A DNA stretch of 64,000 bases from Trypanosoma brucei. Lineage: Eukaryota. Where the stretch lies: contig CP000066.1 of NCBI GenBank assembly GCA_000002445.1, forward strand, positions 1,408,001-1,472,000. Direction: 5' to 3'. Below the pieces are notes generated by a model that saw only the letters and a program-made list of their open reading frames with translations, searched no databases and had not been told where the DNA came from. Each line of letters begins with the position of its first letter. Position 1 is the first letter of the stretch. The position numbers and the translations under genes are program-made. Below, one piece after another: positions 20,793 through 58,963 of the stretch.

Positions 20793-20814
20793 GCACACAC
20801 ACACACACACACAT
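20793..20814. repeat. (AC)11 microsatellite
   Basis: 'gcacacacacacacacacacaca'. Confidence 0.9.
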
Positions 20815-22598: not shown

Positions 22599-22608
22599 TC
22601 ATTGGGTG

Positions 22609-25425
22609 ATGATTCTTGGCCCTGGTGGGCGCATTTTCATCAACCATGGTCATCCAGCGTATCCGCATCTCATGGACTTTCTTACTGCCTGCTGTGAGCC
22701 AGTCTGCCGGACTCTGTACGTGAGTGAATATACCATTTCACCTTCGTCCCTCTCGGCTGCCACTGCGGAAGGGACGTATTCCATGGAAATGGTACGGAAC
22801 GTCATTCGTTACTTTCGGCTGGATGAGCAGCAGCAAATTCCAGTGGATGTAGAGCGATATGCGGCATTGGAGCGGAGGGTGCGCGACAGCGTTCAAGATA
22901 CTTCATTGGATTTGCCGATGGAGGTGGGAGAAGCGAAAGTCAGCGCCAATGGCGACGTGAAAGCGGAAGAGGGGTGCGAAGAAGCGACGGATGAATTGAG
23001 CCCGTTGGCGGGGCAGGTGAAAAAGGAAGAGACGAAGGAAGTTGCGGCGGAGCCTCGGCGTCGGTTCCTCTCACTTAGTAAAAGAATTTCGGCAAAATCA
23101 GAGCCTTTAGTGACTCGGGCAGTGGTTAACACCGGCGCTCTCCAACCCCTTCCAGCCGATCTCGAGCAGATGTTGCGAGAAGAGGAGAACTCATCGAGGG
23201 TTCGAATTGTGTTGCAGCCTTGTCTGCGACCTGTTAAACGACGTGCTGTCGGTGGGGACAAACAGCACTCGGATGAACAGCAATGTCAGCGTGCAGAGGA
23301 AACCAAATTAGCATACTTTTTGACGAGTCCCGATCGCAATCACATGGAGCATCTGGTGAGTCGTCTTCAGGACTTTCTCGTTCCCGTACTTTTGCACGGT
23401 ACACGCCGCTGGGTTGTATCGGATGTGGATCGTGGAGTGGAGGAGAGAAGCACCGCTGAAAGTGGTCGGGCAAAGACACTTCGGAGGCTGTTCGAGGCAC
23501 CATCATCGGCATCGGGTCGGTCAGTTGCTTCTAAATCTTTAACGAATGAGGGAGCTAACGGTGACGGCCTTGGAGGTGGCGTGGGAAGGAGATGTACTCG
23601 CATTGTCTACAAGAGTCAGGTGATGGACGGAAAGATGCGTAATGTGCGCGAACGACTTTACAAGGAGCTCAGTGTTCGCGCTGACTTGTTTTATGATTAT
23701 GTTCAGGATCACTCGCTTCATGTATGTGACCTTGAGCTTTCCGAGAATGTCCGACTGCGACCATATCAGGTTGCATCGCTGGAACGCTTTAGAAGTGGTA
23801 ACAAAGCTCACCAGGGTGTCATTGTTTTGCCCTGTGGTGCTGGAAAAACCCTTACTGGCATTGGTGCAGCAGCCACTGTTAAGAAGCGGACCATAGTGAT
23901 GTGCATTAACGTTATGTCAGTTTTGCAGTGGCAGCGCGAGTTTATTCGCTGGACGAACTTATCAGAAGACCAGGTGACGGTGTGTATAGCGGATAAGAAG
24001 CAAATGCCTGGCGATGTTTTTATAACGACGTATAGTATGCTTATTGCGCGGCGTTCTAACGTTCCTGAGATGGAACAGAGTGCGGATGCCAAATTGACCG
24101 CAAAGATACTTGCCAGTGTTGGGGAGCAACCATGGGGTTTACTTCTCTTGGATGAAGTACACACGGCTCTCGCTCACAACTTTCAGGAGGTGCTTAACAA
24201 GGTGAAGTACAAATGCGTAATTGGGTTGAGTGCTACGCTGCTGCGAGAGGACGACAAAATCGGCGACTTGCGCCATCTTGTAGGGCCGAAGCTGTACGAA
24301 GCGAACTGGTTGGATCTTACAAGGGCGGGTTTCCTTGCTCGAGTGGAGTGCGCAGAGATTCAGTGCCCGCTGCCAAAGGCCTTTCTGACGGAGTACTTGG
24401 AGAGCCAGTCGGATGGGGACCCTTTTGCTCGCCGTGGTACAACGCGGATGGCGCACTCAGTGGTTTGTTTAAATCCGTATAAGTTATGGTGCACCCAGGC
24501 GTTGCTAGAGTTCCATCGTAACAGATCGCCACCTGATAAGGTCATTATTTTCTGTGACCAAATAGATGGAATTCAGTACTACGCCCAGCACCTGCACGTA
24601 CCGTTCATGGATGGCAAGACGAGTGACATGGAGCGGGAAAATCTTCTTCAGTACTTTCAGCACTCCGACAACATAAACGCCATCATCCTCTCCCGTGTGG
24701 GTGATGTTGCTCTCGATATCCCATGTGCTTCTGTTGTCATTCAAATTTCAGGTCTGGGAGCTTCGCGGCGTCAGGAGGCACAAAGGCTAGGTCGGATTCT
24801 GAGGCCAAAACCCGCTTCCTTGGATAACGTCTGTTCATACTTCTACACCCTTGTGTCGCAGGACACACACGAAATTTCACAGAGTTATGAGCGGCAGAGC
24901 TGGTTACGTGACCAGGGATTTTCTTATCGTGTACTGCAGTCGGACATGGTCCTTCAGCACTTTTTGCGGACGGGTGGAAAACTTTGTTGTGTTGGGCCGC
25001 CGCGTTGGTGGTACGAGTGTGCGGGCCCGTCGTGTGATAGTGCCGTTGCGGCAAAGGGGACTTACTGGATACCCTTTTCTCAGGAGGCTGCGCTTCGCAT
25101 GCAAAGCCGATTTGTTGCTGGTGTGAGGGGATGCGATTTGACAGCTACCGTACTTCGTGACACGCCGCGGCCGCCGGAGCTGAAAAACATGGGTGTGGAA
25201 GAGAAGTGGACCGTATGCTTCAGTGATTCTTGTGCTCCGGAAACATTCGGTACAGTTCAGTTGGTGGAGGGCAATCCGCTGCTGGTGCGCCGTATCTGTT
25301 GTGGACCGCTTGCTGTCGAGCATGATTGCCTTCACGGGGGAGAGGAGTGTCTGCAGTACGCCGTGCAGCAGATGAAGGTTATGGTGGCGAAGAATTCTAA
25401 AAACCGAATTCCGCTGACTACCTAG
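22609..25425 (+). CDS. XPB/ERCC3-family SF2 DNA helicase paralogue (TFIIH/NER XPB or XPB-R), N-terminally short, with Cys-rich C-terminal extension
   Basis: The track ORF starts at GTG 22606; the ATG is at 22609. 'GRIFINHGHPAYPHLMDFLTACCEPVCRTL' aligns with human XPB '[29 protein letters not shown]'. 'LRPYQ...GVIVLPCGAGKTLTG' is helicase motif I; 'LLLLDEVHT' is the DEVH motif II; 'GLSATLLREDDKIGDLRHLVGPKLYEANWLDL' and 'QISGLGASRRQEAQRLGRILRPK' are motifs III to VI. Kinetoplastids are known to carry two XPB paralogues, and I cannot assign which one this is from the sequence alone. Confidence 0.9.
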   Translation: MILGPGGRIFINHGHPAYPHLMDFLTACCEPVCRTLYVSEYTISPSSLSAATAEGTYSMEMVRNVIRYFRLDEQQQIPVDVERYAALERRVRDSVQDTSLDLPMEVGEAKVSANGDVKAEEGCEEATDELSPLAGQVKKEETKEVAAEPRRRFLSLSKRISAKSEPLVTRAVVNTGALQPLPADLEQMLREEENSSRVRIVLQPCLRPVKRRAVGGDKQHSDEQQCQRAEETKLAYFLTSPDRNHMEHLVSRLQDFLVPVLLHGTRRWVVSDVDRGVEERSTAESGRAKTLRRLFEAPSSASGRSVASKSLTNEGANGDGLGGGVGRRCTRIVYKSQVMDGKMRNVRERLYKELSVRADLFYDYVQDHSLHVCDLELSENVRLRPYQVASLERFRSGNKAHQGVIVLPCGAGKTLTGIGAAATVKKRTIVMCINVMSVLQWQREFIRWTNLSEDQVTVCIADKKQMPGDVFITTYSMLIARRSNVPEMEQSADAKLTAKILASVGEQPWGLLLLDEVHTALAHNFQEVLNKVKYKCVIGLSATLLREDDKIGDLRHLVGPKLYEANWLDLTRAGFLARVECAEIQCPLPKAFLTEYLESQSDGDPFARRGTTRMAHSVVCLNPYKLWCTQALLEFHRNRSPPDKVIIFCDQIDGIQYYAQHLHVPFMDGKTSDMERENLLQYFQHSDNINAIILSRVGDVALDIPCASVVIQISGLGASRRQEAQRLGRILRPKPASLDNVCSYFYTLVSQDTHEISQSYERQSWLRDQGFSYRVLQSDMVLQHFLRTGGKLCCVGPPRWWYECAGPSCDSAVAAKGTYWIPFSQEAALRMQSRFVAGVRGCDLTATVLRDTPRPPELKNMGVEEKWTVCFSDSCAPETFGTVQLVEGNPLLVRRICCGPLAVEHDCLHGGEECLQYAVQQMKVMVAKNSKNRIPLTT

Positions 25426-29804: not shown

Positions 29805-30180
29805 GGGTCAATCACTCACGTGAGTCTGAGTGCACTGAGCTGCAGAGACATTTCCCCAGAAGTGACCCTGAAACCTGTTGGACACAATTACTGCCGGTGT
29901 CTGAGTGCGGTGTGGGCATACTTGGGTTCTGTATCTGATCCTTGTTGTTTTCTCCCTTCTTATCTTTGTCTTTTTGTTTCCCTAGTTTGCTCTGCATTCG
30001 AGATGAGTACTGTATATTCTTTAATTGATTCCCTCCAAGCCCTCCTCTTTTCTTGACTATATTGCGTTGTTGAATGTAGATGTGCATGGTTGTATTTGGT
30101 TATGATACCCCGTTGCTTGCGGGCGCGTTGCACGAGATTGCATGGAGGGCGCGTGTGAGGCTTCTTTTCCTCCAGAGTTC

Positions 30181-30360
30181 CTTCATTTTCCTCCTGTTTC
30201 AATCCTCATCTGCATTTGTTTTCTTTTCTCTCTTTTTTTTCTTCGCAAACTACAAATACATTTGGTTATGTTCCTCTCTATGTTTTTTTTTAAATCTGTC
30301 ATCAATAATAATAATAATAATTATTATTATTATTATTGCGTTACGTATAGCGCTTACAGA
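30181..30360 (+). promoter_or_regulatory. Polypyrimidine tract, 34-bp AAT/ATT palindrome and AG acceptor upstream of exonuclease paralogue 1
   Basis: A pyrimidine-rich run at 30181-30295 is followed by the (AAT)n(ATT)n palindrome at 30304-30337 and then 'cttacag' at ~30352-30358, immediately before ATG 30364. Confidence 0.4.
30304..30337. repeat. Perfect 34-bp palindrome (AAT)5AA|TT(ATT)5
   Basis: 'aataataataataataattattattattattatt'. The second 17 nt are the exact reverse complement of the first 17 nt. Confidence 0.9.
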
Positions 30361-30363
30361 AAC

Positions 30364-31500
30364 ATGTCGCCCCACAACAAGCGCTCCATGGAACAAAAGA
30401 AGAGGAATAAAGACCGTATCGCCGCCTACCACGGGCAAAGGGTCAACTCGCATGGAGGTCACCGAAATTCGCATTCGCATTCGGGCCACCGGCACCGCGG
30501 CGGGCATACTGTTAGGAGAAACCGCATTTACGACCCGGGAAATCCGTTTGATAGGCAACTCTTCGACTATTTGATTGTCGTGGACGTGGAAGCGACATGC
30601 GAGTATAAAAATGACAATTATCCCCACGAAATTATTGAATTACCCGGTGTATTAGTTGACGTGAGGCGTGGCGTTGTAGACAAGGAACGTTCGTTTCGTT
30701 CATATGTGCGACCGCAACGTAATCCTCTTCTCACCCCTTTCTGTAAAGCACTCACAGGAATAACGCAGGAGGATGTTGACAGCGCACCAACCCTCCAGGA
30801 AGTTGTGAAGTTATTTGAGCAGTGGTACACCGAAACGATTCCACGCGGTGCAAAAGTTGCCTTGGCTACGGACGGGCCTTGGGATTTGAAAAACTTTGTG
30901 CACGAGCACTCCATCTTGCGTGATCATATTAGTTTCCCCACCATCTTTTACGAATATCTGGACATCCGCACGACCTTTGCACACTTCTTCAATCGTGGTA
31001 CGCCTTTAAAACTAGTTCCCATGCTTGAACGGTTGCAGCTAACATTTGAGGGACGTGAGCACTGCGGTTTTGACGATGCGGTGAATATTGCCCGCCTCGC
31101 GGTGTCTATGATGCGTGCGGGATGTGTGTTCAACTACCTCGTGGCAATCCCATTAACTGATGAATTTCACTACGACATGCCAAATACTGCGTTGTACCGC
31201 CGAAAGGAGGGGAGCGGTTATCTTGACCCTGATGTTGTTGATGACATTGCGAAGAAATGCTTTGGAGTAGATTACTTTACATTCGGTGAGAGACATATGG
31301 CAGAGGTGATGGAACACCGGCGCCGCTACCCTCAAAACTTCAACCAACGCAACCAACTGTGGAAACAAACGAAAATGAAGAATCGCGGCCGCAGGTTGTA
31401 CGGCGTTCGCTTCAGAATGGTAGCCGTTGCCGTCTTGGCTCTGCTTGGATTAGTTTTGTTTTTGTTGCTCATTTACCGGAAAGTGATGACGCTGCTCTAA
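30364..31500 (+). CDS. ERI-1/3'hExo-family DEDDh 3'-5' exonuclease, paralogue 1 (C-terminal hydrophobic tail)
   Basis: The track ORF (ATG 30142) begins in low-complexity intergenic sequence; the likely start is ATG 30364 just after a polyY tract, an (AAT)n palindrome and AG. Exo motif I is 'LIVVDVEATCE'; 'YPHEIIELPGVLV' and 'LTGITQEDVDSAPTL' are conserved; motif II is 'ATDGPWDLKNF'; motif III is 'EHCGFDDAVNIARLAVSMMRAGC'. Human ERI1 has 'DFEATCEE..HEIIEFPVV', 'LTGITQDQVD', 'TDGSWDMSKF' and 'HCGLDDSKNIARIAVRMLQDGC'. The C-terminus 'MVAVAVLALLGLVLFLLLIY' is a predicted TM helix. Confidence 0.8.
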   Translation: MSPHNKRSMEQKKRNKDRIAAYHGQRVNSHGGHRNSHSHSGHRHRGGHTVRRNRIYDPGNPFDRQLFDYLIVVDVEATCEYKNDNYPHEIIELPGVLVDVRRGVVDKERSFRSYVRPQRNPLLTPFCKALTGITQEDVDSAPTLQEVVKLFEQWYTETIPRGAKVALATDGPWDLKNFVHEHSILRDHISFPTIFYEYLDIRTTFAHFFNRGTPLKLVPMLERLQLTFEGREHCGFDDAVNIARLAVSMMRAGCVFNYLVAIPLTDEFHYDMPNTALYRRKEGSGYLDPDVVDDIAKKCFGVDYFTFGERHMAEVMEHRRRYPQNFNQRNQLWKQTKMKNRGRRLYGVRFRMVAVAVLALLGLVLFLLLIYRKVMTLL

Positions 31501-33182
31501 CTGCTATTTTTTTCTTTTTCTTTTGTTGTTCTTATACTGCTTTAGATGTGAAGCAAAGTGCTTGGGTGGTTAAGCAACACTGTTTGTGTTTGCGTATGTG
31601 TGGGGAGTTAGCTGAGAGTTTGGTTGCCAACGTTGATGTTTGTTGTGCGCGTTGTCTTCCGCGTGTCCCCTTATCGTGTTGAAGGGGTAGTGATGTAGCC
31701 GATCCTAACGAAGGGGGAGGGAGTGGAGTCATCGAACTGAAATAACTCAATTAGTGAAAAAACAAAAAAAAATTAATAATAATAATACAACAACAACAAC
31801 AACCTCCAATTGTCGTGTAATGGTGGAATAAAAGGGGGAACCACGACTATAAACACATTAAAAGGGATTAGGGTTGATGTGGACGTGAAGGATGGAAATT
31901 TGATACACGCCGCCTCTTTACTCGTCCTCATTTTAACTTCTTTACGTCTGTCCCAACTAATCTCATCGCCATGTGTTGTTGTGTTGTCCGGGTTTAGAGG
32001 CATATGCGCGACCCCCCTTTTTTTGTTATATGCAAATATTTTGAACCTCACGTACAAAGTGCTTGCTTCTTCTTTAGCTATTTTTTGTATATATTTTTTT
32101 AAATCCATTAGGGGAAAAGGCATAAGAAAAGGGATATGAGGGAAGTTGGCTCATCATCAATACAAACACAAGGAGCAAGGCGAAACATTAAAGGGAGACT
32201 TCTTCATGGCGGTTCAGTGGTTTCCGCCACTTTCTTTTTTTCTTTTTTAAGTTGCTGATGTTGTGCTTGCTGGTAGACATAACTTCTTTTTCATTTCCAC
32301 CCACTCTTTACTTTATGGCAGCGCAGTTCAAGCAATCATTGGGTATCAAAGAGGGCAAATCTGGTGTAGGGGTTAAAAGAATTTAACTATGAAGGAGAAT
32401 GTGTTTTCGGAGGGTCAGTAAAAGAAAGAAAAGGAAACTAAAGTTGAAGAGGGAGGTAAACATACGTCACGTAGCATAAAGTTGGTGTAACAATGAAGAT
32501 TACTTGTTTCGTTGTGTTTTTTTTGCTTTTTCACGTACTGGTTCTCCATATGTTTTTCTTCATTATGTCTTGGCTGTGTTATTTATCAGGTGAAATTCCT
32601 TCATTCTCATGGTTACGCACGCATATTTTTCCATGCCGCTTGTTTTCAGGGTTCCCCCTTTGGGGTTTGTTTGTTTGTTTTCTTGTTGTTCACTATTATC
32701 GTCATACATTACATTACTTCATCTTTTCATCCACTTATTCTCTCTTTTCTTTTTATTCTTTTTATTTTTTTTAAAAAAAAACGCTCTTCTTCGGTTTAAG
32801 CCGCCACAACAGCGCGCATTAACTTGGAGGCGTACGGTAACCGCATCCACAGGCCGATTTCATCATCTCTCAGGCGTTTGCATAAGGGGTGTTTGAAAGA
32901 CAAGTGTTGGATACGGGGGAATTCGCTTCGTCAAGGGTGTGCTGTTGAGGGGCAAGTTTTGTTTTTTTTTTTTGCACAAAAAAAACAACAACAACAATAA
33001 AAAGGTATACATTTTCATTTCTGTGGAGGTCAAAGACTTGCATAGTGGACAAAGAAAAGGAACACACGTAGGGAGAGGTAAAGTGAAGTGAAGAGGGAGG
33101 AAGGGAACTGGAGCCCCCCCTAAAAAAAAAAAAAATAATAGGAAGTGTGTGTTGTCAGTTGAAAACATTGCTGACCTACAAA

Positions 33183-33246
33183 GTTCCCATATTCTTTTTT
33201 TTGTTCTTGAGGAGTTTTATTGTTTATTGTTTTGTTCTGCTTGCAG
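33183..33246 (+). promoter_or_regulatory. Polypyrimidine tract + 'ttgcag' acceptor upstream of exonuclease paralogue 2
   Basis: 'cccatattcttttttttgttcttgaggagttttattgtttattgttttgttctgcttgcag' lies directly before ATG 33259. Confidence 0.4.
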
Positions 33247-33258
33247 ACTGGATTGGAA

Positions 33259-35547
33259 ATGGATTTGAAGGAGAACCGTAGAAGTTGCACGTTTCATGGT
33301 GAGCCAACAGACACGGGTGACGGAAATGCCTATTCCGATACGCAGTGCTGCAGCACTTCATCATGCATAGATAACGTGCAGTATATTGGTTCTAAAGCAA
33401 GTGGTGTGGAACCAACCTTTGGTGATGGGTTAAAGTTACACGACACAACACACTCAGGGCGTGAGGGTCATCGCTTTCAATCCAATAGAGCTCCCGCTAT
33501 TTCTAACCAGGAAAAGTGCCGTACGGTAAGGTTCATTGCTGCGCAGTGGCTTTCGTTGTTGATGAACGAGTCACCCAACGTGGCGATACCGCCTTCTCTC
33601 CGAGGTCGTAGGAACCAAACGCGTCGCCGTCGCCGTCAACAACAACAACATCAGCAGCAGGTCACCAGGCGGGATGAGGAGTTATCCGGACCTGATGGGA
33701 GGGACAATGTGATGGCGGAGGAGGTCGATAGTGATGAGAGTTACTCGCAAAAGAGGATTCTTCCTATTGGCGTCACCAAAAAAGGTGCATCACCAACCCT
33801 CACTGGAAATGACAACAGGCAAGTGGAGGAACCCCGCACCATGACTGGGAATGATACGCCCACATCTTCGTTTGAGTTAGTGCCACGGGAAGAAACACTC
33901 CCGCAGCTTATGGCCGTGTTGAGGGAAGTTGCCCTGGCGGGTGCTTCTTTATCTGATCTCTCGCCAGTAGGAGATGAGGGGGAGATGAGTACTTCACAAT
34001 CGGTAAGCGAGAAAGCGGAGGCGAGTGTGGCTGATGTAGTTACAGGTTCGAGTAACAGTGGTTGCACACCCGCACAAACCCAAGACGAATTGTTATGGAA
34101 GGATATTCGTAAGCAGTTGAACCAAGTGTGTAAACTGGTTCACAATCGCAGCGAGCTAGCGGCAGAACTAAACAGCACCCTCGGTAACGACTGGTATTTG
34201 AGTGATGATGAACTTCGCAAGGATGAAACGCCCCTCAAGGATTATTGTTTCCAGCTTCCTCCACCACAGGTAAGTTGCGTTGACACCCACTCAGCCGCTG
34301 CTGCATCATCTGAGAGGGAGGCTTCAGAACCAATGGAACAACAGCAGCAATTTCAAAAGCAGGAGTGCACCGATCGTACCCGCACTGTGGCTGTCGCCTC
34401 TGCCGGGTCTCGATTAAATCGGGACGCACCTCCGTTTCACTCCCGGTTGTACGTGCCAACACACCTTAGTTCTTCCTCTACAATTTGGGCGGATGCGCCT
34501 GTTTACTATCCGGGGGGTACATCATCACCCGGTAAACAGAAAGAATTGTCTTCACCTTCAGTTGCACATCAGCGTCCTTCTTTCACACAGACTGCGGAAA
34601 GCAGTTCCTTAGGTGGTGCGTCGGTTGGTTCACCCACGGTGCCTCTCACCACCTCTGCAGGGGCATCAGCAGCGTCAAATGTGGGCTCCTCCACAACTTC
34701 GCCGAGCATAACGTTTAATTTAGAGTCGCGTGAAGGTATGATTCGCAGGAGGACGGCTGCAGCAGCAGCAGCGGCTGTGGCCGCAAATCATTATGTTCAC
34801 AACTCGGGAGGTAATTTTTATAGCGGTGGTCGTTCCCGGGGTGGTTGGGGTAACTCCCATTCACCGGTGGTGACTTATATGAACTGTGCACTGTCCCTCT
34901 CGCAGTGTCCTTTTGACTATTTACTTGTTGTAGATTTTGAGGCGACGTGTGAAGAATACGCGCCACCATCGTACTTACACGAAATAATTGAGTTTCCTGT
35001 GGTTGTGGTTGACGCCAAGCTGCAGCGCGTCATAACGGAGTTTCACCGCTACGTGAAACCTAAGGTGAAACCGCAGCTGAGTGAATTCTGCCGCCAACTT
35101 ACCGGCATCCGGCAGGAGGACATTGATAGCGCCGCTCCACTGGAAGATGTAATCAAGCAATTTGAACGCTGGTACGCGCAAACGATACCACCGGGTAGCC
35201 GTACCGTATTAGTAACAGACGGACCTGCGGACCTTCGTGAATTTATGTACGTGCATAGTGTGACACGGCAAGGGATCCGCTTCCCCAGCATGTTTTACCA
35301 GTGGATTGATGTGAAGCAGGTCTTTGCCCACTTTTTCCAGTGTCAGCAGGGGAAAATAAAGGCCATGCTGGAGGTCCTTCAGTGTCCTTTTGAGGGGCGA
35401 CTCCACAGTGGCATCGACGACGCGAGAAATATTGCAAAAATTGTTATTCGAATGCTGGAGGTTGGGTGCTCTTTTTGCGAGATTCCGCTTTGCCGGCTTC
35501 CATATGGTACCACAACCACTGCTGCTGCAGGCCCAGCTCAGGAATGA
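33259..35547 (+). CDS. ERI-1/3'hExo-family DEDDh 3'-5' exonuclease, paralogue 2 (long low-complexity N-terminal region)
   Basis: The track ORF starts at TTG 33220; the first ATG is 33259 (MDLKENRR...), preceded by polyY and 'ttgcag'. The C-terminal ~220 aa contain 'DYLLVVDFEATCEEYAPPSYLHEIIEFPVVVVD', which is near-identical to human ERI1 'DFEATCEEGNPPEFVHEIIEFPVVLL'. Also present are 'LTGIRQEDIDSAAPL', 'TDGPADLREF' and 'LHSGIDDARNIAKIVIRMLEVGC'. The N-terminal ~540 aa are Ser/Gln/Ala-rich with no recognised domain. Confidence 0.8.
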   Translation: MDLKENRRSCTFHGEPTDTGDGNAYSDTQCCSTSSCIDNVQYIGSKASGVEPTFGDGLKLHDTTHSGREGHRFQSNRAPAISNQEKCRTVRFIAAQWLSLLMNESPNVAIPPSLRGRRNQTRRRRRQQQQHQQQVTRRDEELSGPDGRDNVMAEEVDSDESYSQKRILPIGVTKKGASPTLTGNDNRQVEEPRTMTGNDTPTSSFELVPREETLPQLMAVLREVALAGASLSDLSPVGDEGEMSTSQSVSEKAEASVADVVTGSSNSGCTPAQTQDELLWKDIRKQLNQVCKLVHNRSELAAELNSTLGNDWYLSDDELRKDETPLKDYCFQLPPPQVSCVDTHSAAAASSEREASEPMEQQQQFQKQECTDRTRTVAVASAGSRLNRDAPPFHSRLYVPTHLSSSSTIWADAPVYYPGGTSSPGKQKELSSPSVAHQRPSFTQTAESSSLGGASVGSPTVPLTTSAGASAASNVGSSTTSPSITFNLESREGMIRRRTAAAAAAAVAANHYVHNSGGNFYSGGRSRGGWGNSHSPVVTYMNCALSLSQCPFDYLLVVDFEATCEEYAPPSYLHEIIEFPVVVVDAKLQRVITEFHRYVKPKVKPQLSEFCRQLTGIRQEDIDSAAPLEDVIKQFERWYAQTIPPGSRTVLVTDGPADLREFMYVHSVTRQGIRFPSMFYQWIDVKQVFAHFFQCQQGKIKAMLEVLQCPFEGRLHSGIDDARNIAKIVIRMLEVGCSFCEIPLCRLPYGTTTTAAAGPAQE

Positions 35548-37057
35548 GAAATGGATGCTGCCAACACTCTGCTGTGCGTACCCGCGGTGCTGATGTTGCT
35601 TAGTATTGTTTACAGTTCTTCTTTTGGCTGAGGAGCAGCTCCGTGTGGAGTAACGATGCCTCTGTGTGGGTGCGTTTGTGTATGTATGTGTGGGAGGTGA
35701 AATATGAGAGAAGGAATTGGAATTGACAACCAAGAGCAAAGGAAGGAAAAAGGGAATATACATAAATAAATAAATATATATATATATATATACAGTGAAA
35801 TTTTACCACAGTGAGCTTGTGAGGGAGGAGAGGGAGGAGGACGTGAGACGGAATGGAACGGAGGGATTCAAAAAAAAAAACGAAGAGATATTTGGGGGGG
35901 GGTGGGGGAGAGGAGGGGTTTACAAAACAGAAACAGTTACAATATTTTGGTTGGGTTGGAGTTGCTGTTGTGTTTTTCTAGAGGATGAGGGGATGGAGCG
36001 GGTTGCCAGTGGTGAAATGTGCGCTTGGGGAGTGCGCAGAAGACAATGACAGCGCGGCGAGTGAAAATCGACGTGAAGAGTTGCGAAGGCAAGTACGAGT
36101 TAGAACGAGTCGAAGATATTTCTTTGTTGGGGTAAGTTTATTACCGCTTTTACAATTAGTAAGGCTTCAATATGTATGTGCCCTTTCTCTTTTATCTCAT
36201 TTACTTCCAGATCCCCCATGTGGTAACACTAGTTTTTTTTTCCACGTGAGCGTGGTGTTGAAGTGGTGATGTTATTTCGTTTGAAATGTCGACTTAAGGA
36301 GAGGAAGGGAGGGAAGGGGGGGGGGGAAAAAATAAGGAAAGAAAAAGGAAAAACAATTGCAGTTGTGTAGGCCGGAGCGCACCTGGATTCCGCCTATCAA
36401 TTTATTTCACCGTTTATCTGAGTGTCATATATGGTTAAGTGATCATGCTATACGACCTATATTTGAATGAGTATAAATAAGTATAAATATATATTTATAT
36501 ATTTATATATTTTTGTGTTTTTTTGTTTTTTTGTTTTTTTGTCAAATCAACTAGTTTGGCGAAGGAGCCCAGTTTTTATGTGCATGAGTTATGTACATGT
36601 GTGTGAGCTTGGTGCCAGAGAAGACAAACTTCAGCACCTTCCTATGTTTTTTGAAAGAAAAAAAATTCTTCTTATTCTGCTGTTTTGTTTTACTGCGCTT
36701 GCCACTCATATATTTATATTTATATACGCACATTTTTTTTTGTTTCCTTCTCACTCGTGACGGTTAGTGTTTTTTCATCCAAATACGGGTACGTGTGTGT
36801 TTGTGTTTGTGTATATTTGCACGGGAGGAAGGAGGGAAAAGAGGTAAGTGCAACACTGATGATTGTGTGAAGTTTCTTCTTCATGTCAAAGTATATTTGC
36901 GCTTCTTTCTCTTTTTTTTTTTTATGTTCCCCCTTATTCTCCTTTTTGTTCTTTTTGTTCTTTTATTTCCCCCTCTTTCTTTTGATTCTTATTTTTCCCT
37001 TCTTTCTTCACTCGTTTCGAAAAAAAAAACTGAGAAAATCCAACGGTTGGTGGTGAT

Positions 37058-37118
37058 GGTTGTTGTTGTTGTTGTTGTTGTTTTTATTGTTGGTGTTGTT
37101 GTTGTTTTTATTGTTGGT
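37058..37118. repeat. (GTT)n run containing a perfect 24-bp tandem duplication
   Basis: 'ttgttgttgtttttattgttggtg' occurs twice back to back (37071-37094 and 37095-37118). Confidence 0.85.
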
Positions 37119-37888
37119 GATATCTGTGATGCCGTAAGAAGTTTGCTTTTTCATTACCGTTGTTTTTACTGTACCCCTTTCCCTCATGAAAGGAGAGAAA
37201 GGATCTATTTCCTTGTGTGTTAATTCGTTACTTTTTTTCTCCCATTTTTTTTTTCCCATCGTCTTTTCTCAATTTCCTCGACCCCTCCTTTCTTTTGTTT
37301 TACCCTCCGTTTGTGTGTGTTTTTATTCTTGATTTTTTCTTGCTCCCCGTTTGCTTGTTACCGGCTTCAGCCGCATGCGCAATACTTTTTTTTTCTTTTA
37401 GTTGTATTGATGAGGAAATGAAGTGGATGAATGGTTCAGAAAGGAAAATAACAGAGCAGCCGTATTCGGTCGCAGTGTTTCGTACTGGCCATTGAAGATA
37501 TCCTTTCATTGAATTTCTGCTTTCTGTCCGGCCTGTTGCTTTTACACACCACCCGTAGATTGCTGTTGCTCGCTAATCCTCTTGTAAATATCATTTGCTT
37601 CGCGTTATCTCTTCTCTTCTTTTTTTTTTCTCCCCCTCTTAATTACCTTCGTTACACTTATTTGTTCTGAAAAATATACGACTCTATGTGTACAATACAG
37701 TTGTGTTCCCGTAACGTGATTCAGGGAGTGAAGGAAGTGAAGTATAGATATCACCCCCTCCCCAATTTCTTCCCTAAAGGAAGCATACAGCAACAACAAC
37801 AACATCCAAAAAGAGAGGCGTGTAAAGAAGCTGTGGGTATTATTAAGAGGAAAGGCGACGCCGTGCAAAGCGAAACTACGCCATACTT

Positions 37889-38878
37889 ATGGTTTCTTGC
37901 AAGGCAATACCGGAAAGAGCCAGTGCCAGCAGTAACGGCGTGCAACCTCAAGCGTTTCATACTGACAAATGTTATGACGCTGGAGATATAACTTGCAAGA
38001 AGATGACTAAGAATGAAGGCGATGGAGGTCTATCACAAAGAAAGAATAAACCGCGTGGTCGTCCGCAACCTTTTTCACATTTACTTGTGTGTGACTTCGA
38101 GGCGACGTGTGACGCTGATAGTGCCGGACTGTACCCACACGAGATCATTGAGTTTCCGGTAGTGTGCATTGACACCGCACAACTTGCTGTTGTAGCTGAG
38201 TTTCACTCTTATGTTCACCCAGTGCGCCGTCCGAAACTCACCGCTTTTTGTAAGGAGCTGACTGGCATCACCCAATCGGTAGTTGATGACGCACCAACTC
38301 TGCCGGAGGTGATTCAAAAATTTGGTCAATGGGTTCGTGAAGTGGTGTATCCTCTTTGTAAAATGTGGAAACAACAGTATCCTCCTTCTCAGCTGGCAAG
38401 CAACTGTCTGGGTGATTTGGGAAAAAAATTCAAATATGACGAGAAAGACAATAAAGAGTGGGTGGGTTGCGAACGCATGGTTTGCTTCGCCACCGACGGT
38501 CCGTGGGATATGCGTAAATTCATGCATGAATGCAGCGTGGTCCGCGATGGCCACATTTTTCCGCCGCTTTTCTACCGCTGGGTGGACGTGCGTAAGTGCT
38601 TCAAACAACACTTCAACAAGTGGCCGCGGAAACTGGTCGACATGTTGCGGACGTTGCGTCTCGATTTCGAGGGCAAACAACACAGTGGAATTGACGACTC
38701 CCGAAACATTGCGCGTATCCTCATCGAGTTGATGCGCCGCGGTTTCTTTGTGAAACGCGTTAGTACGATCGAATACAAATGTCCAATGGATGTTGGTGGA
38801 GTGATCCTTACACAAGAAATGCGGGAACTCTGTGATGAGGAAAATGCAAAAGCAAAGCAACGACACCTTCGCGAGTAA
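37889..38878 (+). CDS. ERI-1/3'hExo-family DEDDh 3'-5' exonuclease, paralogue 3 (compact, internal insertion)
   Basis: ATG start. An alternative in-frame ATG lies at 38000 (MTKNEG...). Motifs are 'LLVCDFEATCDADSAGLYPHEIIEFPVVCID', 'LTGITQSVVDDAPTL', 'ATDGPWDMRKFM' and 'KQHSGIDDSRNIARILIELMRRG'. A ~40-aa insertion 'VYPLCKMWKQQYPPSQLASNCLGDLGKKFKYDEKDNKEW' sits between motifs I and II. Confidence 0.85.
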   Translation: MVSCKAIPERASASSNGVQPQAFHTDKCYDAGDITCKKMTKNEGDGGLSQRKNKPRGRPQPFSHLLVCDFEATCDADSAGLYPHEIIEFPVVCIDTAQLAVVAEFHSYVHPVRRPKLTAFCKELTGITQSVVDDAPTLPEVIQKFGQWVREVVYPLCKMWKQQYPPSQLASNCLGDLGKKFKYDEKDNKEWVGCERMVCFATDGPWDMRKFMHECSVVRDGHIFPPLFYRWVDVRKCFKQHFNKWPRKLVDMLRTLRLDFEGKQHSGIDDSRNIARILIELMRRGFFVKRVSTIEYKCPMDVGGVILTQEMRELCDEENAKAKQRHLRE

Positions 38879-39851
38879 CGTGAAAAGAAGGGGAAGACAC
38901 GGGGAAATGCATGAGATTGACCCTTCAGAAACAACAGACAGCAACAGATGACAACAGATGAAGGCGCCGGCAGCGAATGCAACGATCCCTACTCGTGCGT
39001 TACTGTGGCGTAGGGGCTGGCGGGGGTAGGGTTCCTAACATTGGGTATTTGTTAATTGTGTTCAGATATCACTGGTTTTCTTTTTTGTTTACACCAGAAC
39101 CTTTTGCTGTTCATCATCGTTACAGTTCATTCGTTTCAGTTGCAAGTTACTCCAAACGGATAATAATAACAATTTTTCTTTTTGATGAACGTTTATGACT
39201 GTGTTACACGTCTTCCTTCCTCTTTGATTGCATGTTTAGTACAATTACCTCACCTTTTTTGCGTTCGCTCGGTAACTACCGGGTGGGTGAGGAACGTAGC
39301 AAGGCATTGTGTCAACATACATTAGAGAGGCGCAAAGAAAACTCATCGTCCCAAGGTGACGATTGCAGAAGAGGTACAAAGAAAACAGAAAAGAAAAGGC
39401 TTACTCACGCGGGCGCACACACAGAGAAAGAGAGAGGGAAAGGGTGAAAGAGTGAAAGGAACATAACAAAAGAGGAATCAAGATAAAGGTAGGTAACGGT
39501 AGATAGAAAAAAAAACAACAACATCAGAACCCCATATATCACTGGACTGAGGTGTACAGTGACCCATATATAGAAACGAGCGTAAAAAGGTACTTCAGTA
39601 ACGAAGAAGCTAGTGTGCGCAGTGAATATTGTTTGTATTTTTATTTTTAATCCTTTTCTTTTAGTCCGTACAACCCCACGTACCAGCCCGTGGGGGAGGA
39701 TCTTATTATTATCTTCTTTTTTTTAAAAAAAAAAAGAATATCGCCATATTGTTCCCATAGAATCTGTAACTTTCTCACGTATTATTGAAGCACCAACGCA
39801 AGAGAGGACGACAACTCAGACTGACTCACCAGCCAACTTGTCATCGCAATA

Positions 39852-42800
39852 ATGAGTGACCGTCCCCGACCACCTTTTGGCGTGAAGCTTTCGTTTGGGA
39901 AAGTCGTGCAGGGGCTCGGGTCGGACGGGCGCAGCGCCTTCTTGACACCTCGGGATGTGTCAGCGACTCCCGATTCTAATGTGACGAGGGGTTCAGCGGA
40001 AGCAACTGGGAGAGAACAACAACTAGACACAACTTCAGAACTGCAAAGGAGTTTTCAGTACCTCACCCCTCGCCAACAGCAGAGCATTCTTTCTTTTTGC
40101 AGGCCTTTTACTCCCTCCATGTCGGTTCCCCGTGGAGAGCTTCATTCGTCTATTGGCTCCCGTTCCACTTCACCGGTGGTGGTGCGACCGACCAAAGATC
40201 TGCCCCCAACAAAGGATGCCGTAGATGCCCCTCGGATGCCACCAACAGCGGTGAAAAGGGAAGAAAGTGTATTTCATGACGGAGACGGGCAAACTCCAGT
40301 GACTTCTGTACATTCGAGTGTCGTGGCCACCCAATCAGCGTCTGAGGCCGTAAAGCTCAGACCCCCTAAAATTCCCGCTTCTTCTCCTTCCCCTTCCCCC
40401 TCCCCAAAAGCTGCTGTTGCTAATGCATCCGCAACCAGTGCCACGACTACCACCGCGGGACTTGCCACTACTGCGACTGGTGCGGATGTAAGTGCTGAAG
40501 CGGCTGGAAGCGATGCCGCACCGCAGGGTACTGTGTACAATGTCTGTTCACTCTGTGGCCTCACCGTGCTACTTGGCGGGAGCTTTGCAGAGCAGCAGCA
40601 ACAGTGGCAGGACCACATTAATTCTTGGATGCATCAACGTTGCTTGAAGATGCACGCAAATGCGCGTAACGAGAACGTGTACATTGGTGACACCACAACC
40701 GTTTCTATAGGCTCGCCCGTGTCACCTTCGATGTTGAAGGCATTGGAAGAATTTTCATCATCCATTGCTTCATCGGATGCGGGGCAGTCTGCGGGACGGG
40801 CCATCCGATTGTCCCCTGCTCCCTTGAAGTTGCCAGTTTCGGATGATGTGGTCACGGCGCGAGAACTAGAAGCCAGGCGAATCACTTTCTCGTCAGAGGA
40901 CATCACGCCACGCATTCTTGCTGATAGCAGTGAGCACCTATCGCTTGTTGAGAAGAAACTCTTTACTTCCGTTAAGAAGCCACATGTATCAGGTGATGAT
41001 GCTGAGGTTGTTGGCATACTGACAGACGAAAGGGAGGCAGCCACCGCTGGTAAAGCGACGTGCGAGGGAGGGGCACCGCCAATATGCCAGAAGCGAAAGT
41101 TGTTGAAATCAGTCAAAGAATCCGGAGAAACACCGATTCGAGGAGGGTTCCGGAAGTTTGATGTCAATGCTGACCAAGTAAACACGTCGAGCGGTGCTGA
41201 GATGGACGATGCTGGTCAGAGTAATAGCAGCAAGCGGCACTTAAAGCGGAGGCTAGATAAATACTTGGTTGTCAAAGAAAGGCGACTGTTACTTGCTTGC
41301 ATGCGTCACTGGTTTAACAGTATGTTTGTGCGCGTAACGGACAATTTTTTCTCCGTTCGATCGCGTTCAAGCAAGGAGACACCCGATGCTATGGTGGCAG
41401 CATCTCCTACAGTGAGGTGCAGTCGAACGGATACGCCATTGGATGCGTATGTTCCTGGTGTTGGGCAACAAAAGGCGTCACCGGTGGTACGTAAGGGATC
41501 CAAGAAGCAACCGGAGCTTGTTGCTGTGGAGGCTGCTGCTGGCGGTGGTGATAATGAGAAGGGAGAGTTGTTGTTTATGGCTTCACGTGTAAAAGATTTT
41601 GCGCACATCAAGAAGGACTCTTCCGCGGATAGTTTAGAGATGGAAGTGGGGAAGACGGACGTAAAGTGGTATGTCTCTCGCCCCGCAGGGAATTCGCGGA
41701 AGCGGGGGAAAGTCTCATCCTGTAAACATAAAAAAGATGACTCATCCACCCCGTCACTTGAAGACGACAGTAGCATTGAGGAGCTGCTCTCCTCACTAGC
41801 ACCTCCACTGCAGGAACGTGTGCGAATGGCAATCCGTGGGAAGCCCGTAAGCAAGTCGAAGTTTCCCATGACATCCGAGGTTATTAGCATGATGCGGGAT
41901 TCTGTGCAGCAAGAGGTACAACAGTATAGGGATCAACAGTTGTTTCACCAGTTCCAACACCAACAGCAGCAGCAGCAACATCAGCACCACGAGCAGTACC
42001 ATGACAACTACCAGCACCATCCTGTGGCATCCCGTTCCTCCCCAGATGCTGTGGGGATCCCGCAGCAACCGTTTCTTGAACGTCGGGAGTTTGGCACTAA
42101 TACCAAGGAGCTCGTGAACGAGTCGCTACGCATTAGGGAAGGTGAGGTGGGATCTACCAGTTTCAGAAGGGAGCAAGCCATAGATACCTCCGTACCATAT
42201 GGTTACCTTTCACAAATTTTATCAGAAGAGACCCCCATGAGGACTACCGGCTTAACAGAGGGTGTTGTACCCAACAAAGAAGACGAAAGGGGCGGGAAAA
42301 TACTCGCGAACGCGATGGAAGAAGCCAGCGGGGTTGTGGGACGACAGCTACCCCGTCCGTTTCTACTAGTGGAGGGGCGTAGACAACTGAGTGGCGGATC
42401 ATCAGGGAGTTCAGAATGCGGGTCCGCCATCGAAGAAAGGGGCGACGAAGCACCGCGTCCGCGTTCCAACGGCTCCCCAGATGATTGTATGCGGTATTTG
42501 AATGCTGAAGCGAGTTTTAGCGGAAGTCGGGGCAACTCCCGAGACCGAAAGCACCGGCGAAGACGGTCGCGCGCCGTGGAGGCTGCTGAATCGGAAATTC
42601 GCGAACCGAGGCAAATTTCTCAATCGCATATAACGAATCATGCACGTAGAGGAGCGAGCCGCAAGGGGAGGCAACCCCTTTCCATATCCTCGATTCACTC
42701 CACTTTGCGCGCAGGAGGTAATAGCGAACGTCCAACTTCCCCACAAACAACGCCACGAGTACGAGGGACCTCCGGTTCCAGGGCCTCCTTTACTGTTCGA

Positions 42801-43550
42801 AAGGGGTCTATGGAAGAATGGGATACCTCAAGCTGTACGTTTAGAGGCGTACCAGGCGAGTATTACTGTTATGATGGTGAAGCCTACCAGCATGTGGAAG
42901 ACCCTACAGCCGGTGCATTATGTGATAAGTTAGGTCGGCGGCTCCCGCTGTATTTTGTACGCCGCTGTTCAAGCCCTTCGATGTCCCCTACACGGTTCAG
43001 TTGCATGCCAGTGACGAGGTCTCGTAGTCCCCTCGGACCTGGACGTTTGAACCCGTACTGTAGTGTTTGTGTTGAGCGCTACAACATTGTTATGGTTGAC
43101 GAAAACATGCGGGTCCTCTCCCCTGTAGTTAACAGAAGAGGAGGTGGGACCGGTAACTGCGCCTGCACATTTGCAAACAGGGGAAACTCGGCCAGCGGGC
43201 GCGGCAGGGGGAAGCGAAGATGTTCATCGGCGTCAAACACATTTTCCCCTCACAGAGGAATAAGTCCTGGTGGTTGCGTTGAGACGACTGATATCGGCAA
43301 ACGGAAACGAGGGTCCATCGCCCTACCTACAGGGAAACATCACCGTATTGTGGACCTTGAGGCTCTCTCCAGTGAGCAGGTTTGGCTTCTGCAGCAGGAG
43401 CGTCGTGTTCGCTCAATGATAAAGGCACTGTTACGACATGAGTTTCCTGTTAATGAGAAGTGCCGTCAGTGGGTAGCTTACCTCAACTCGTTGAATGACG
43501 CCGCGGAAGCGCTGAAGACGCTGCAAGTTGTGGACCTGACGGACAAATAA
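39852..43550 (+). CDS. Large hypothetical protein (Ser/Pro-rich, poly-Gln/His tract, Arg-Ser-rich stretch)
   Basis: ATG start with a 1232-codon uninterrupted ORF. Features seen are an S/P-rich N-terminal third, 'HQFQHQQQQQQHQHHEQYHDNYQHH', an RS-like 'SRGNSRDRKHRRRRSRA', and a Cys/His cluster 'CSLCGLTVLL...WQDHINSWMHQRC'. I recognised no catalytic domain. Confidence 0.6.
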   Translation: MSDRPRPPFGVKLSFGKVVQGLGSDGRSAFLTPRDVSATPDSNVTRGSAEATGREQQLDTTSELQRSFQYLTPRQQQSILSFCRPFTPSMSVPRGELHSSIGSRSTSPVVVRPTKDLPPTKDAVDAPRMPPTAVKREESVFHDGDGQTPVTSVHSSVVATQSASEAVKLRPPKIPASSPSPSPSPKAAVANASATSATTTTAGLATTATGADVSAEAAGSDAAPQGTVYNVCSLCGLTVLLGGSFAEQQQQWQDHINSWMHQRCLKMHANARNENVYIGDTTTVSIGSPVSPSMLKALEEFSSSIASSDAGQSAGRAIRLSPAPLKLPVSDDVVTARELEARRITFSSEDITPRILADSSEHLSLVEKKLFTSVKKPHVSGDDAEVVGILTDEREAATAGKATCEGGAPPICQKRKLLKSVKESGETPIRGGFRKFDVNADQVNTSSGAEMDDAGQSNSSKRHLKRRLDKYLVVKERRLLLACMRHWFNSMFVRVTDNFFSVRSRSSKETPDAMVAASPTVRCSRTDTPLDAYVPGVGQQKASPVVRKGSKKQPELVAVEAAAGGGDNEKGELLFMASRVKDFAHIKKDSSADSLEMEVGKTDVKWYVSRPAGNSRKRGKVSSCKHKKDDSSTPSLEDDSSIEELLSSLAPPLQERVRMAIRGKPVSKSKFPMTSEVISMMRDSVQQEVQQYRDQQLFHQFQHQQQQQQHQHHEQYHDNYQHHPVASRSSPDAVGIPQQPFLERREFGTNTKELVNESLRIREGEVGSTSFRREQAIDTSVPYGYLSQILSEETPMRTTGLTEGVVPNKEDERGGKILANAMEEASGVVGRQLPRPFLLVEGRRQLSGGSSGSSECGSAIEERGDEAPRPRSNGSPDDCMRYLNAEASFSGSRGNSRDRKHRRRRSRAVEAAESEIREPRQISQSHITNHARRGASRKGRQPLSISSIHSTLRAGGNSERPTSPQTTPRVRGTSGSRASFTVRKGSMEEWDTSSCTFRGVPGEYYCYDGEAYQHVEDPTAGALCDKLGRRLPLYFVRRCSSPSMSPTRFSCMPVTRSRSPLGPGRLNPYCSVCVERYNIVMVDENMRVLSPVVNRRGGGTGNCACTFANRGNSASGRGRGKRRCSSASNTFSPHRGISPGGCVETTDIGKRKRGSIALPTGKHHRIVDLEALSSEQVWLLQQERRVRSMIKALLRHEFPVNEKCRQWVAYLNSLNDAAEALKTLQVVDLTDK

Positions 43551-45905: not shown

Positions 45906-46316
45906 ATGGCCATGTCTGGTGTTTCTGTTGCGGACGAGTGCGTCACGGCGCTCAATGATCTCCGCCACAAGAAGTCCCGCTACGTGATTATGCACATCGT
46001 TGATCAAAAGTCCATTGCCGTGAAAACTATTGGCGAGCGAGGCGCCAACTTTGATCAGTTCATTGAGGCCATTGACAAAAATGTGCCATGTTACGCTGCT
46101 TTTGACTTTGAGTATACCACCAATGACGGCCCTCGTGACAAATTAATTCTCATCAGTTGGAATCCCGATTCCGGAGCCCCACGCACGAAGATGTTGTACA
46201 GCAGCAGCCGCGACGCTCTCGTGCCCCTCACGCAGGGTTTCCAGGGAATTCAGGCAAATGATGCATCGGGACTTGACTTTGAGGAAATCTCCCGCAAAGT
46301 GAAGTCGAACCGGTAA
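45906..46316 (+). CDS. ADF: Actin-depolymerising factor / cofilin
   Basis: ATG start, 136 aa. 'SGV.V.DEC..AFNDL...K.RY.I' is an ADF-H N-terminus. 'FIEAIDKNVPCYAAFDFEY' and 'KLILISWNPDSGAPRTKMLYSSSRDAL' match the ADF-H fold consensus (KxxFIxWxPDxAxxxxKMxYASSKDAL). Confidence 0.9.
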   Translation: MAMSGVSVADECVTALNDLRHKKSRYVIMHIVDQKSIAVKTIGERGANFDQFIEAIDKNVPCYAAFDFEYTTNDGPRDKLILISWNPDSGAPRTKMLYSSSRDALVPLTQGFQGIQANDASGLDFEEISRKVKSNR

Positions 46317-46988: not shown

Positions 46989-47028
46989 GTCTGTCTGTCT
47001 GTCTGTCTGTCTGTGTGTGTGTGTGTTT
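46989..47028. repeat. (CTGT)n-(TG)n compound microsatellite
   Basis: 'tctgtctgtctgtctgtctgtctgtgtgtgtgtgtgtttg'. Confidence 0.9.
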
Positions 47029-54218: not shown

Positions 54219-54220
54219 AG

Positions 54221-58961: not shown

Positions 58962-58963
<2 letters not shown>

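Follow-up and report, generated by a model that had tools for sequence, protein, structure and literature searches.

Why should a trypanosome carry three genes for ERI1-like exonucleases side by side, how old is such an array, and do its members act in the same place? The question is raised by a stretch of Trypanosoma brucei chromosome 3 (64,000 nucleotides; GenBank assembly GCA_000002445.1, contig CP000066.1, forward-strand positions 1,408,001 to 1,472,000), which we call the window and whose own numbering is used throughout. Three open reading frames (ORFs) follow one another on its + strand at the coordinates given by a first-pass annotation of the same DNA, with which the ORF list agrees. 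Their lengths (378, 762 and 329 amino acids, aa) match those in a recent report (PMC12702573; Amodeo et al., Nucleic Acids Res, Dec 2025), and on that basis they are Tb927.3.5130, Tb927.3.5140 and Tb927.3.5150, which we refer to as genes A, B and C.

30364 to 31500, + strand: gene A (Tb927.3.5130, TbLrRP1), a 378-aa ORF with an exact match to Trypanozoon proteins, a Pfam RNase_T match and ERI1 as its top PDB match
33259 to 35547, + strand: gene B (Tb927.3.5140), a 762-aa ORF with an exact match to AAZ10545.1, a Pfam match, ERI1 at E 1.4e-43 and an AlphaFold2 model
37889 to 38878, + strand: gene C (Tb927.3.5150), a 329-aa ORF with an exact match to SCU64813.1, a Pfam match, ERI1 and ERI3 at E ~1e-36 and an AlphaFold2 model with a predicted local distance difference test score (pLDDT) of 83

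The reading we favor, at a probability of roughly 0.8, is that these are ancient, kinetoplastid-specific paralogues of the ERI1/ERI2/ERI3 family, arranged head-to-tail in one polycistron, expressed as separate mRNAs and equipped with different targeting modules. Much of the background is already in print: PMC12702573 describes gene A itself, as TbLrRP1, with a DEDDh domain and a C-terminal transmembrane domain, and its Discussion points to two further ORFs,.5140 (762 aa) and.5150 (329 aa), with closely similar DEDDh domains and a resemblance to ERI1, found in essentially all kinetoplastids. The trio, its similarity to ERI1 and its conservation will therefore not surprise specialists, with the genes and similarity published and the function of A solved in December 2025. 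That paper does not analyze the phylogeny, synteny, motifs or structure of these paralogues, nor does it assign them a function. What we add is that the membrane anchor is universal in the A lineage, that the DEDDh residues are invariant, that an insertion in C is ordered in a structural model, and that the N-terminus of B holds predicted helices and a motif resembling PABP-interacting motif 2 (PAM2; PABP, poly(A)-binding protein).

The three proteins share a core and differ around it. Gene A encodes a basic N-terminal tail, an ERI1-type DEDDh domain, a conserved post-domain segment and a C-terminal transmembrane domain. B has a long, mostly disordered N-terminus (544 residues ahead of the domain) and a C-terminal ERI1-type domain. 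C has a short disordered N-terminus, an ERI1-type domain interrupted by an insertion, and a C-terminal helix. The domains lie as follows, where clades A, B and C are those of the trees described below:

30541 to 31137, + strand: ERI1-type DEDDh nuclease domain of A (aa 60-258), catalytic residues intact in 20/20 clade-A proteins
34891 to 35481, + strand: ERI1-type DEDDh nuclease domain of B (aa 545-741), pLDDT >90, DEDDh intact in 7/7 clade-B proteins
38054 to 38758, + strand: ERI1-type DEDDh nuclease domain of C (aa 56-290), ERI3 (7k05) as top Foldseek match, DEDDh intact in 17/17 clade-C proteins

All three proteins matched Pfam RNase_T (PF00929) over the full model, at E-values of 6e-22 to 1e-25. 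In a three-way alignment the five DEDDh residues are invariant columns (D74, E76, D170, H233 and D238 in A numbering), and all the core motifs quoted in the first-pass annotation are present: DVEATC/DFEATC, TDGPWD/TDGPAD, HCGFDD/HSGIDD, HEIIELP/HEIIEFP and LTGITQ/LTGIRQ. The catalytic set is intact in all 44 sampled clade members, and core identity among the paralogues (44-50%) is far beyond chance.

Sequence and fold place these cores in the same family. With phmmer against PDB, ERI1 matched at 1e-37 to 1e-43 (by gene: A 5.6e-40, B 1.4e-43, C ~1e-36, with ERI3 equal for C), ERI3/ERI2 at 1e-26 to 1e-37 and Caenorhabditis elegans CRN-4 at 1e-15 to 1e-24. The nearest non-ERI DEDD nuclease, PolC, came in at 5e-5 or weaker, and the nuclease-like domain of ESRP1 at ~1e-6. 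Foldseek searches of PDB with an AlphaFold2 model of C (pLDDT 83.2, core >90), on which our fold comparison rests, returned ERI3, 3'hExo, ERI2 and CRN-4 at E-values of 1e-19 to 1e-14 with TM-scores up to 0.90; RNase T, DnaQ and TREX2 followed at 1e-7 or weaker, and PARN was not among the top 50 matches. The nuclease domain of B is likewise modeled at pLDDT >90. The cores of A, B and C belong to the ERI1/ERI2/ERI3 DEDDh family, not to RNase T, DnaQ or PARN, which bears out the assignment to ERI1/3'hExo that the first-pass annotation had offered for refutation. It had overstated one likeness: the motif I region of B, described as almost residue-for-residue that of human ERI1, is ~62% identical to it, and only the DFEATCEE and HEIIEFPVV blocks are identical. 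It was correct that no copy has a SAP domain. A search for PF02037 found none in A, B or C at E <= 0.01 and none in the B N-terminus at E <= 1; many metazoan and fungal ERI1 proteins in the outgroup carry it.

Human and mouse ERI1 (3'hExo, THEX1; PDB 1W0H, 1ZBH, 4L8R) is the closest protein of solved structure to A and B by sequence; for C it is level with ERI3. It shares with the trio the DEDDh, HEIIEFP and LTGI.Q blocks, and the C model superposes on 1W0H with a TM-score of 0.87. Unlike ERI1, the trio has a transmembrane anchor (A), a disordered N-terminus (B) or a helical insertion (C) instead of SAP; it stems from lineage-specific duplications, with no one-to-one orthologue; and A does not act on 5.8S rRNA, its catalytic residues being dispensable in its known role. 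Human ERI3 (PRNPIP) and ERI2 (PDB 7K05, 2XRI, 7N8V) are SAP-less like the trio, and ERI3 7K05 is the top match of C (E 9.5e-19, TM-score 0.90), but sampled ERI3-type sequences have C at the motif II column (DECHD) where A, B and C keep D. CRN-4 (PDB 3CG7) also adopts the ERI-type DEDDh fold (sequence E 1e-15 to 1e-24, fold E 1e-14) and is a DNase, which is relevant to the recovery of C on DNA baits; it is farther from the trio than ERI1/2/3, and its C-terminal Zn domain is not found there.

TbRIF4 (Tb927.10.8880) and Neurospora crassa QIP are DEDDh 3'-5' exonucleases like the trio. RIF4 serves T. brucei RNA interference (RNAi), converting small interfering RNA (siRNA) duplexes to single strands, and is restricted to RNAi-competent trypanosomatids. 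Its gene lies on chromosome 10, which rules it out as a member of the trio, and RNAi-negative T. cruzi and Leishmania major have A, B and C as well, so that an RNAi-specific role for them is unlikely from their distribution. Several non-kinetoplastid relatives, including proteins of Pelomyxa and Gymnopilus, have two tandem ERI-type domains in one polypeptide, a route unlike the three-gene kinetoplastid array.

How old, then, is the array? The order XPB helicase, hypothetical, ankyrin protein, A, B, C is found in both L. major and Phytomonas, and the trio has XPB and ankyrin neighbors in the T. brucei window too. In T. cruzi the order is the same up to B, where the contig ends, and the locus tags ...684 (A) and ...686 (C) are consistent with C following B. 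L. major has an extra annotated ORF of 585 aa between A and B (L001 11428-13185), which has no Pfam match and is not in the T. brucei, T. cruzi or Phytomonas arrays; either a lineage-specific insertion or a false ORF call in GC-rich DNA could account for it.

In a neighbor-joining tree of 64 cores, clades A, B and C received bootstrap support of 97%, 96% and 95%, and every clade contains bodonid-grade members (Trypanoplasma borreli in A and C, Neobodo in B). A tree of 316 sequences separated A+B+C from 16 named outgroups (metazoan, fungal and amoebozoan ERI1/ERI3 proteins) with 96% support and gave 100%, 95% and 88% for A, B and C; these values are constraint-split supports, exact-clade bootstraps being uninformative through rogue environmental fragments. 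We asked whether C groups with ERI3, because C matches ERI3 as well as ERI1 in PDB E-values and ERI3 is its top Foldseek match; support for C+ERI3 was 0% in the larger tree, and C as an ancient ERI3 orthologue is rejected. At the DNA level the three genes share only ~45-nucleotide patches at 65-77% identity. The identity of A, B and C to mollusc ERI1 (44-45%) is barely below that among the paralogues.

The triplication is thus not recent, given that each clade has bodonid-grade members, the array is syntenic and DNA similarity is patchy. These sequence comparisons show that a single ERI1-family ancestor triplicated before trypanosomatids, Trypanoplasma and Neobodo diverged, that is, before the metakinetoplastid radiation. 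Because A+B+C form one kinetoplastid clade (96%), the three would be at best co-orthologues of metazoan and fungal ERI1, not one-to-one counterparts. The proposal of a local duplication followed by sub-functionalization therefore stands insofar as the genes are true paralogues with different appendages, whereas a recent local event is contradicted by phylogeny and synteny; the choice it had left to a phylogeny with other kinetoplastid homologues, between a lineage-specific and an ancient array, falls to the ancient one. Recent duplication or gene conversion is ruled out by the clade structure and by the lack of DNA similarity beyond the ~45-nucleotide patches. Two deep environmental contigs (L004 and L005) have clade-A-like genes with no tandem ERI neighbors, a hint that not every lineage beyond trypanosomatids has the array.

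The arrangement of the genes also bears on their expression. With a single exception antisense to gene C, every ORF in the window that reaches 250 aa is encoded on the + strand, which fits a single polycistron. That exception, a 287-aa ORF on the minus strand at 38081-38944, is almost certainly spurious because the polycistron is one-stranded. Upstream regions that matter for the gene models are:

30142 to 30363, + strand: in-frame upstream extension of A (452-aa ORF, old TREU927 annotation), with polypyrimidine runs at 30150-30300 and AGs before the 30364 ATG
33186 to 33258, + strand: polypyrimidine tract and AG ahead of the B start codon, a putative trans-splice acceptor region from our reading of the sequence
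37600 to 37702, + strand: polypyrimidine tract and first AGs ahead of gene C, again a putative trans-splice acceptor region

The first-pass annotation began the array at 30142 while starting A at 30364. Only the second position is the start of A; the first is merely the first ATG of the longer 452-aa ORF. We consider that model over-extended because the N-terminus beginning at 30364 (MSPHNKR) is kept in T. congolense, Leishmania, Leptomonas and Phytomonas and because polypyrimidine tracts lie inside the extension. The segment 30142 to 30363 is most likely non-coding, a 5' untranslated region or intergenic sequence with a trans-splice polypyrimidine tract. PMC12702573 takes TbLrRP1 as 378 aa (44 kDa). 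The T. vivax gene A model (434 aa) likewise appears over-extended at its N-terminus. As each gene has its own upstream polypyrimidine tract and AG, and A mRNA was detected and specifically depleted (PMC12702573), separate trans-spliced mRNAs are expected for A, B and C, those of B and C by inference from the sequence.

What distinguishes the three proteins lies outside the shared core. For A, the elements beyond the domain are:

31138 to 31368, + strand: clade-A-specific post-domain segment (IPL..HY...LYRR.EGSG.LD.DVVDDIAK.CFG..YF.FG), from an alignment of 18 clade-A C-termini including bodonid-grade ones
31417 to 31473, + strand: C-terminal transmembrane anchor of A, aa 352-370, MVAVAVLALLGLVLFLLLI, with a basic cluster ahead and a Kyte-Doolittle hydropathy of 3.23

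The post-domain segment is ~70 residues long and conserved in clade A. The hydrophobic tail noticed in the first pass is a 19-residue segment ending 8 residues short of the C-terminus. A hydrophobic C-terminal 19-mer, with Kyte-Doolittle values of 2.2-3.5 and 0-36 residues short of the protein end, is shared by 20/20 clade-A proteins; no B or C protein has one. The bodonid-grade clade-A proteins (L004 4089-5903; Trypanoplasma borreli, 560 aa) are ~200 residues longer than the trypanosomatid ones and have an acidic, coiled stretch inserted after the post-domain segment, ahead of the transmembrane domain.

The function of A has been solved. TbLrRP1 is an integral protein of the endoplasmic reticulum (ER) and nuclear envelope, with its soluble portion on the cytosolic side; it probably heterodimerizes with the NERD nuclease TbLrRP2 (Tb927.10.9200, outside the window), and it is needed for excision of internal transcribed spacers 5 to 7 (ITS5-7) from large subunit (LSU) rRNA (PMC12702573). 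Spatial proteomics also puts it in the ER. Loss of TbLrRP1 leaves 5.8S rRNA unaffected, and a version with all DEDDh motifs changed to alanine complements fully (PMC12702573). Of the functions that the first-pass annotation borrowed from other systems (5.8S maturation, siRNA and histone-mRNA turnover), none is borne out for A, the one copy tested: its loss spares 5.8S and its DEDDh residues are dispensable.

This leaves a puzzle, since a site that is invariant in ~20 orthologues, free-living bodonid-grade ones included, is dispensable in the published assay. The invariance of DEDDh in 20/20 clade-A proteins argues that a catalytic role of A is still under selection. Most likely, to judge from this conservation, A also has a catalytic trimming activity that was hidden in the published assay or covered by B or C. 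If so, the conserved 'dispensable' DEDDh would be a sign that the three paralogues share a masked redundancy.

Orthologues of B were collected by synteny and exhaustive search, a word-indexed search with full-length B having given only 2 matches owing to its biased N-terminus. The first pass had described this region as ~540 residues of low complexity. The length and bias are real (544 residues, compositionally biased, mostly disordered), yet the region is not featureless: a five-species alignment, to which the conservation statements on B refer, holds conserved blocks at aa 85-105, 205-232, 277-312, 386-397 and 484-501. In the AlphaFold2 model four of these blocks, and nothing else in the N-terminus, form helices; the remainder, including the block at 386-397, is disordered. 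No known domain was found in the B N-terminus in Pfam at E <= 1. The elements are:

33505 to 33567, + strand: conserved helix 1 of B, aa 83-103 (KCR..R.IA..WLS.LM), an alignment block with a predicted helix at pLDDT ~50
33898 to 33957, + strand: conserved helix 2 of B, aa 214-233 (P.L..VLREIAL.CASL), from alignment and AlphaFold2
34081 to 34182, + strand: conserved helices 3/4 of B, aa 275-308 (E..W..VR..F..VR.LV.N..EL...LD.TLG.DW), from alignment and AlphaFold2
34408 to 34449, + strand: clade-B-specific PAM2-like linear motif, aa 384-397, GSRLNRDAPPFHSR, from alignment, in predicted disorder
34729 to 34785, + strand: conserved helix 5 of B just ahead of the domain, aa 491-509, within TFNLESREGMIRRRTAAA, from alignment and AlphaFold2

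The disordered block (aa 386-397, RLNRDAPPFHSR) has the family consensus LN.NA.PFHSR, in which F393, S395 and R396 are invariant. Set against PAM2, the T. brucei motif keeps L3, N4, A7 and F10 and has P9 and S12 at the other key positions; in L. major, T replaces A7 at the aligned site. Bodonid-grade B proteins carry L-R-S-[NS]-A-P-E-Y-R-P, and several B proteins have second, fuller copies with E9 and P12 (PLSRLAKEYVP, SAPEFRP, SNAPEYRP). A relaxed PAM2 pattern was matched by 21/42 clade-B proteins, compared with 1/53 in A, 0/44 in C and 5/200 other family members. B carries a clade-specific, conserved linear motif that is PAM2-like, and we regard PABP binding as a lead only.

In C the distinctive element is inside the domain:

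38342 to 38479, + strand: insertion of C between motifs I and II, ~aa 152-197 (VYPLC..W ... F.YD ... CE.M), from alignment and AlphaFold2

The insertion, put at 40 residues in the first pass, measures 39-46. Its block-mean pLDDT is 74-95 over aa 161-200, and it lengthens helix 138-163 and adds short helices at 177-180 and 189-195, so that in the AlphaFold2 model it is an ordered helical subdomain. Its sequence is conserved among trypanosomatids and variable, often longer, in bodonid-grade clade C; it is absent in Neobodo173 and jgi176 (Neobodo-like). According to a review crediting Reis et al. 2018, Tb927.3.5150 is one of 24 putative telomere-associated proteins and is conserved as far as Bodo saltans; in a proteomic pull-down it was enriched on an abasic-site DNA bait. 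A nuclear role of C at DNA or RNA ends is plausible.

Put together, an early triplication of one ERI1-family ancestor was followed by each copy retaining its own targeting module. The anchor of A holds TbLrRP1 in the ER/nuclear-envelope membrane on its cytosolic face, where it pairs with TbLrRP2, to which A probably presents RNA for excision of the LSU rRNA spacers ITS5-7, as its role needs no DEDDh residues. B and C would be soluble, predicted catalytically competent 3'-5' exonucleases directed elsewhere than A. B is probably directed by its disordered N-terminus with four conserved helices and the PAM2-like motif, a possible partner being PABP, and C probably by its structured helical insertion, the pull-downs on telomere-repeat and abasic-site DNA baits pointing to nuclear nucleic-acid 3' ends.

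Several points weigh against this picture. Our trees are neighbor-joining only, and the 316-sequence tree does not settle in which order A, B and C split. The authors of PMC12702573 note that catalytic activity of TbLrRP1 was not demonstrated, and their TbLrRP1 co-immunoprecipitation enriched only four proteins, neither.5140 nor.5150 among them. The telomere and abasic-site enrichment of C may reflect mere affinity for free 3' ends and could be non-specific, because oligonucleotide pull-downs could catch any 3'-end-binding nuclease. For B, the Pfam PAM2 model (PF07145) gave no match at E <= 10 for eight clade-B 32-mers and none in full-length proteins, while its positive controls passed (Paip2 34.3 bits, eRF3 42.8 bits); the B motif thereby tests negative for canonical PAM2 membership. 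A proteome-wide PAM2 scan of T. cruzi has no exonuclease among its proteins, and the identifiers Tb927.3.5140 and.5150 did not appear in the accessible supplement text of three large T. brucei data sets (spatial proteomics, PABP BioID and TrypTag).

It is tempting to speculate that B is tethered to PABP through a divergent, kinetoplastid-specific PAM2-like motif and acts where polyadenylated mRNAs end, perhaps trimming them in connection with deadenylation. Its consensus LN.NA.PFHSR resembles the eRF3 PAM2 'LNVNAKPFVP' in keeping L3, N4, A7 and F10 (PMC2854688), the same positions and disordered setting being shared with other PAM2 proteins (Paip2, PAN3, Tob; Leishmania eIF4E4). The extra copies with E9 and P12 in some B proteins point the same way, as does the frequency of the relaxed pattern (21/42 in clade B compared with 6/297 others). 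We nevertheless hold this specific proposal to be tentative and somewhat doubtful. The pattern was picked post hoc, and clade-B proteins are mutually related. The Pfam model that detects Paip2 and eRF3 peptides recognizes none of the eight clade-B peptides, and the validated Leishmania PAM2 is canonical (MNPNATEFMP), with an important E9, whereas the main block of B lacks E9 and P12 and even A7 becomes T in L. major. The motif was also unreported in the T. cruzi scan, and Tb927.3.5140 was not found in the PABP BioID tables as available. If the proposal were true, B would be a previously unrecognized PABP-tethered nuclease working at the 3' ends of mRNAs, and this in organisms whose gene regulation depends almost wholly on how RNA is processed and degraded.

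Alternatively, B and/or C could be the missing catalytic exonucleases of the pathway of A, trimming LSU rRNA fragment ends after LrRP2 cleavage. Redundancy of this kind would explain complementation by catalytically dead LrRP1 and would suit clade-A DEDDh residues that are strictly conserved though dispensable in the assay; none of the three closely related cores has lost its catalytic residues, and further exonucleases are expected (PMC12702573). We find such a shared pathway unlikely. B and C did not co-purify with TbLrRP1, whose four partners exclude.5140 and.5150, and this leaves a shared pathway without support. In addition, neither protein has a membrane anchor, C was recovered on DNA baits, and the B motif is like that of mRNA factors.

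It seems very improbable that B or C is SNIP, a nucleoplasmic DEDDh exonuclease polishing the 3' ends of spliced leader (SL) RNA, U2/U4 small nuclear RNA and 5S rRNA (Zeiner et al. 2004). SNIP reportedly has a central ExoIII/DEDDh-type domain, a layout that would fit C, and is reported to have been found through Rex-type searches, suggesting another DEDDh subfamily. It is cited elsewhere as an enzyme that digests SL RNA in the 3'-5' direction. However, literature searches, with the original SNIP paper outside their range, gave no Tb927 identifier for SNIP, the name is attached to none of the exact-sequence clusters of the trio, and PMC12702573 treats.5140 and.5150 as uncharacterized ORFs with SNIP unmentioned.

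Least credible is a recent lineage-specific tandem duplication and sub-functionalization of an ERI1 orthologue doing the 5.8S, siRNA and histone-mRNA jobs: the genes are adjacent, on one strand and 44-50% identical in their cores, with ERI1 as top PDB match, but each has its own clade with Trypanoplasma or Neobodo orthologues, the array is syntenic across trypanosomatids, paralogue identity barely exceeds that to mollusc ERI1 (44-45%), no DNA similarity extends beyond 45-nucleotide patches, 5.8S is unaffected by loss of A and catalysis is dispensable (PMC12702573), SAP was not found in A, B or C, and the known T. brucei exonuclease of RNAi, RIF4, is encoded elsewhere, on chromosome 10.

With ancient paralogues carrying different targeting modules as the reading we retain, the remaining interest lies in the roles of B and C, which are equally conserved and apparently active. 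Such paralogue questions should be of moderate interest to RNA biologists and parasitologists, and they are testable by standard T. brucei genetics.

Ku70 (Tb927.3.5030 per PMC8311970) lies upstream of the trio within the window, and Ku70, an XPB/ERCC3 helicase and a Rad51-domain protein (4944-7199, 22606-25425 and 60811-62244) are in the same + strand polycistron. The combination of DNA-repair-type neighbors and recovery of C on DNA baits is probably a coincidence, since trypanosome gene order is rarely functional. Rfam at gathering thresholds found no structured RNAs in the window. Between B and C, tandem repeats occupy 36912-37119 (a 40-nucleotide unit x2, and (GTT)n / a 24-nucleotide unit). 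The next gene downstream (39852-43550, 1232 aa) has no Pfam domain, is serine/alanine-rich with a glutamine/histidine-rich run, and is annotated as conserved hypothetical or uncharacterized in T. brucei and T. equiperdum. Four AT-rich stretches (18000-22000, 46000-50000, 54000-56000 and 58000-60000; GC 0.32-0.40 compared with ~0.50 elsewhere) are long intergenic regions, mostly free of ORFs of at least 250 aa, with one ORF (48977-50053) inside 46000-50000. Near the window end is a (TG)23 run at 62717-62763.

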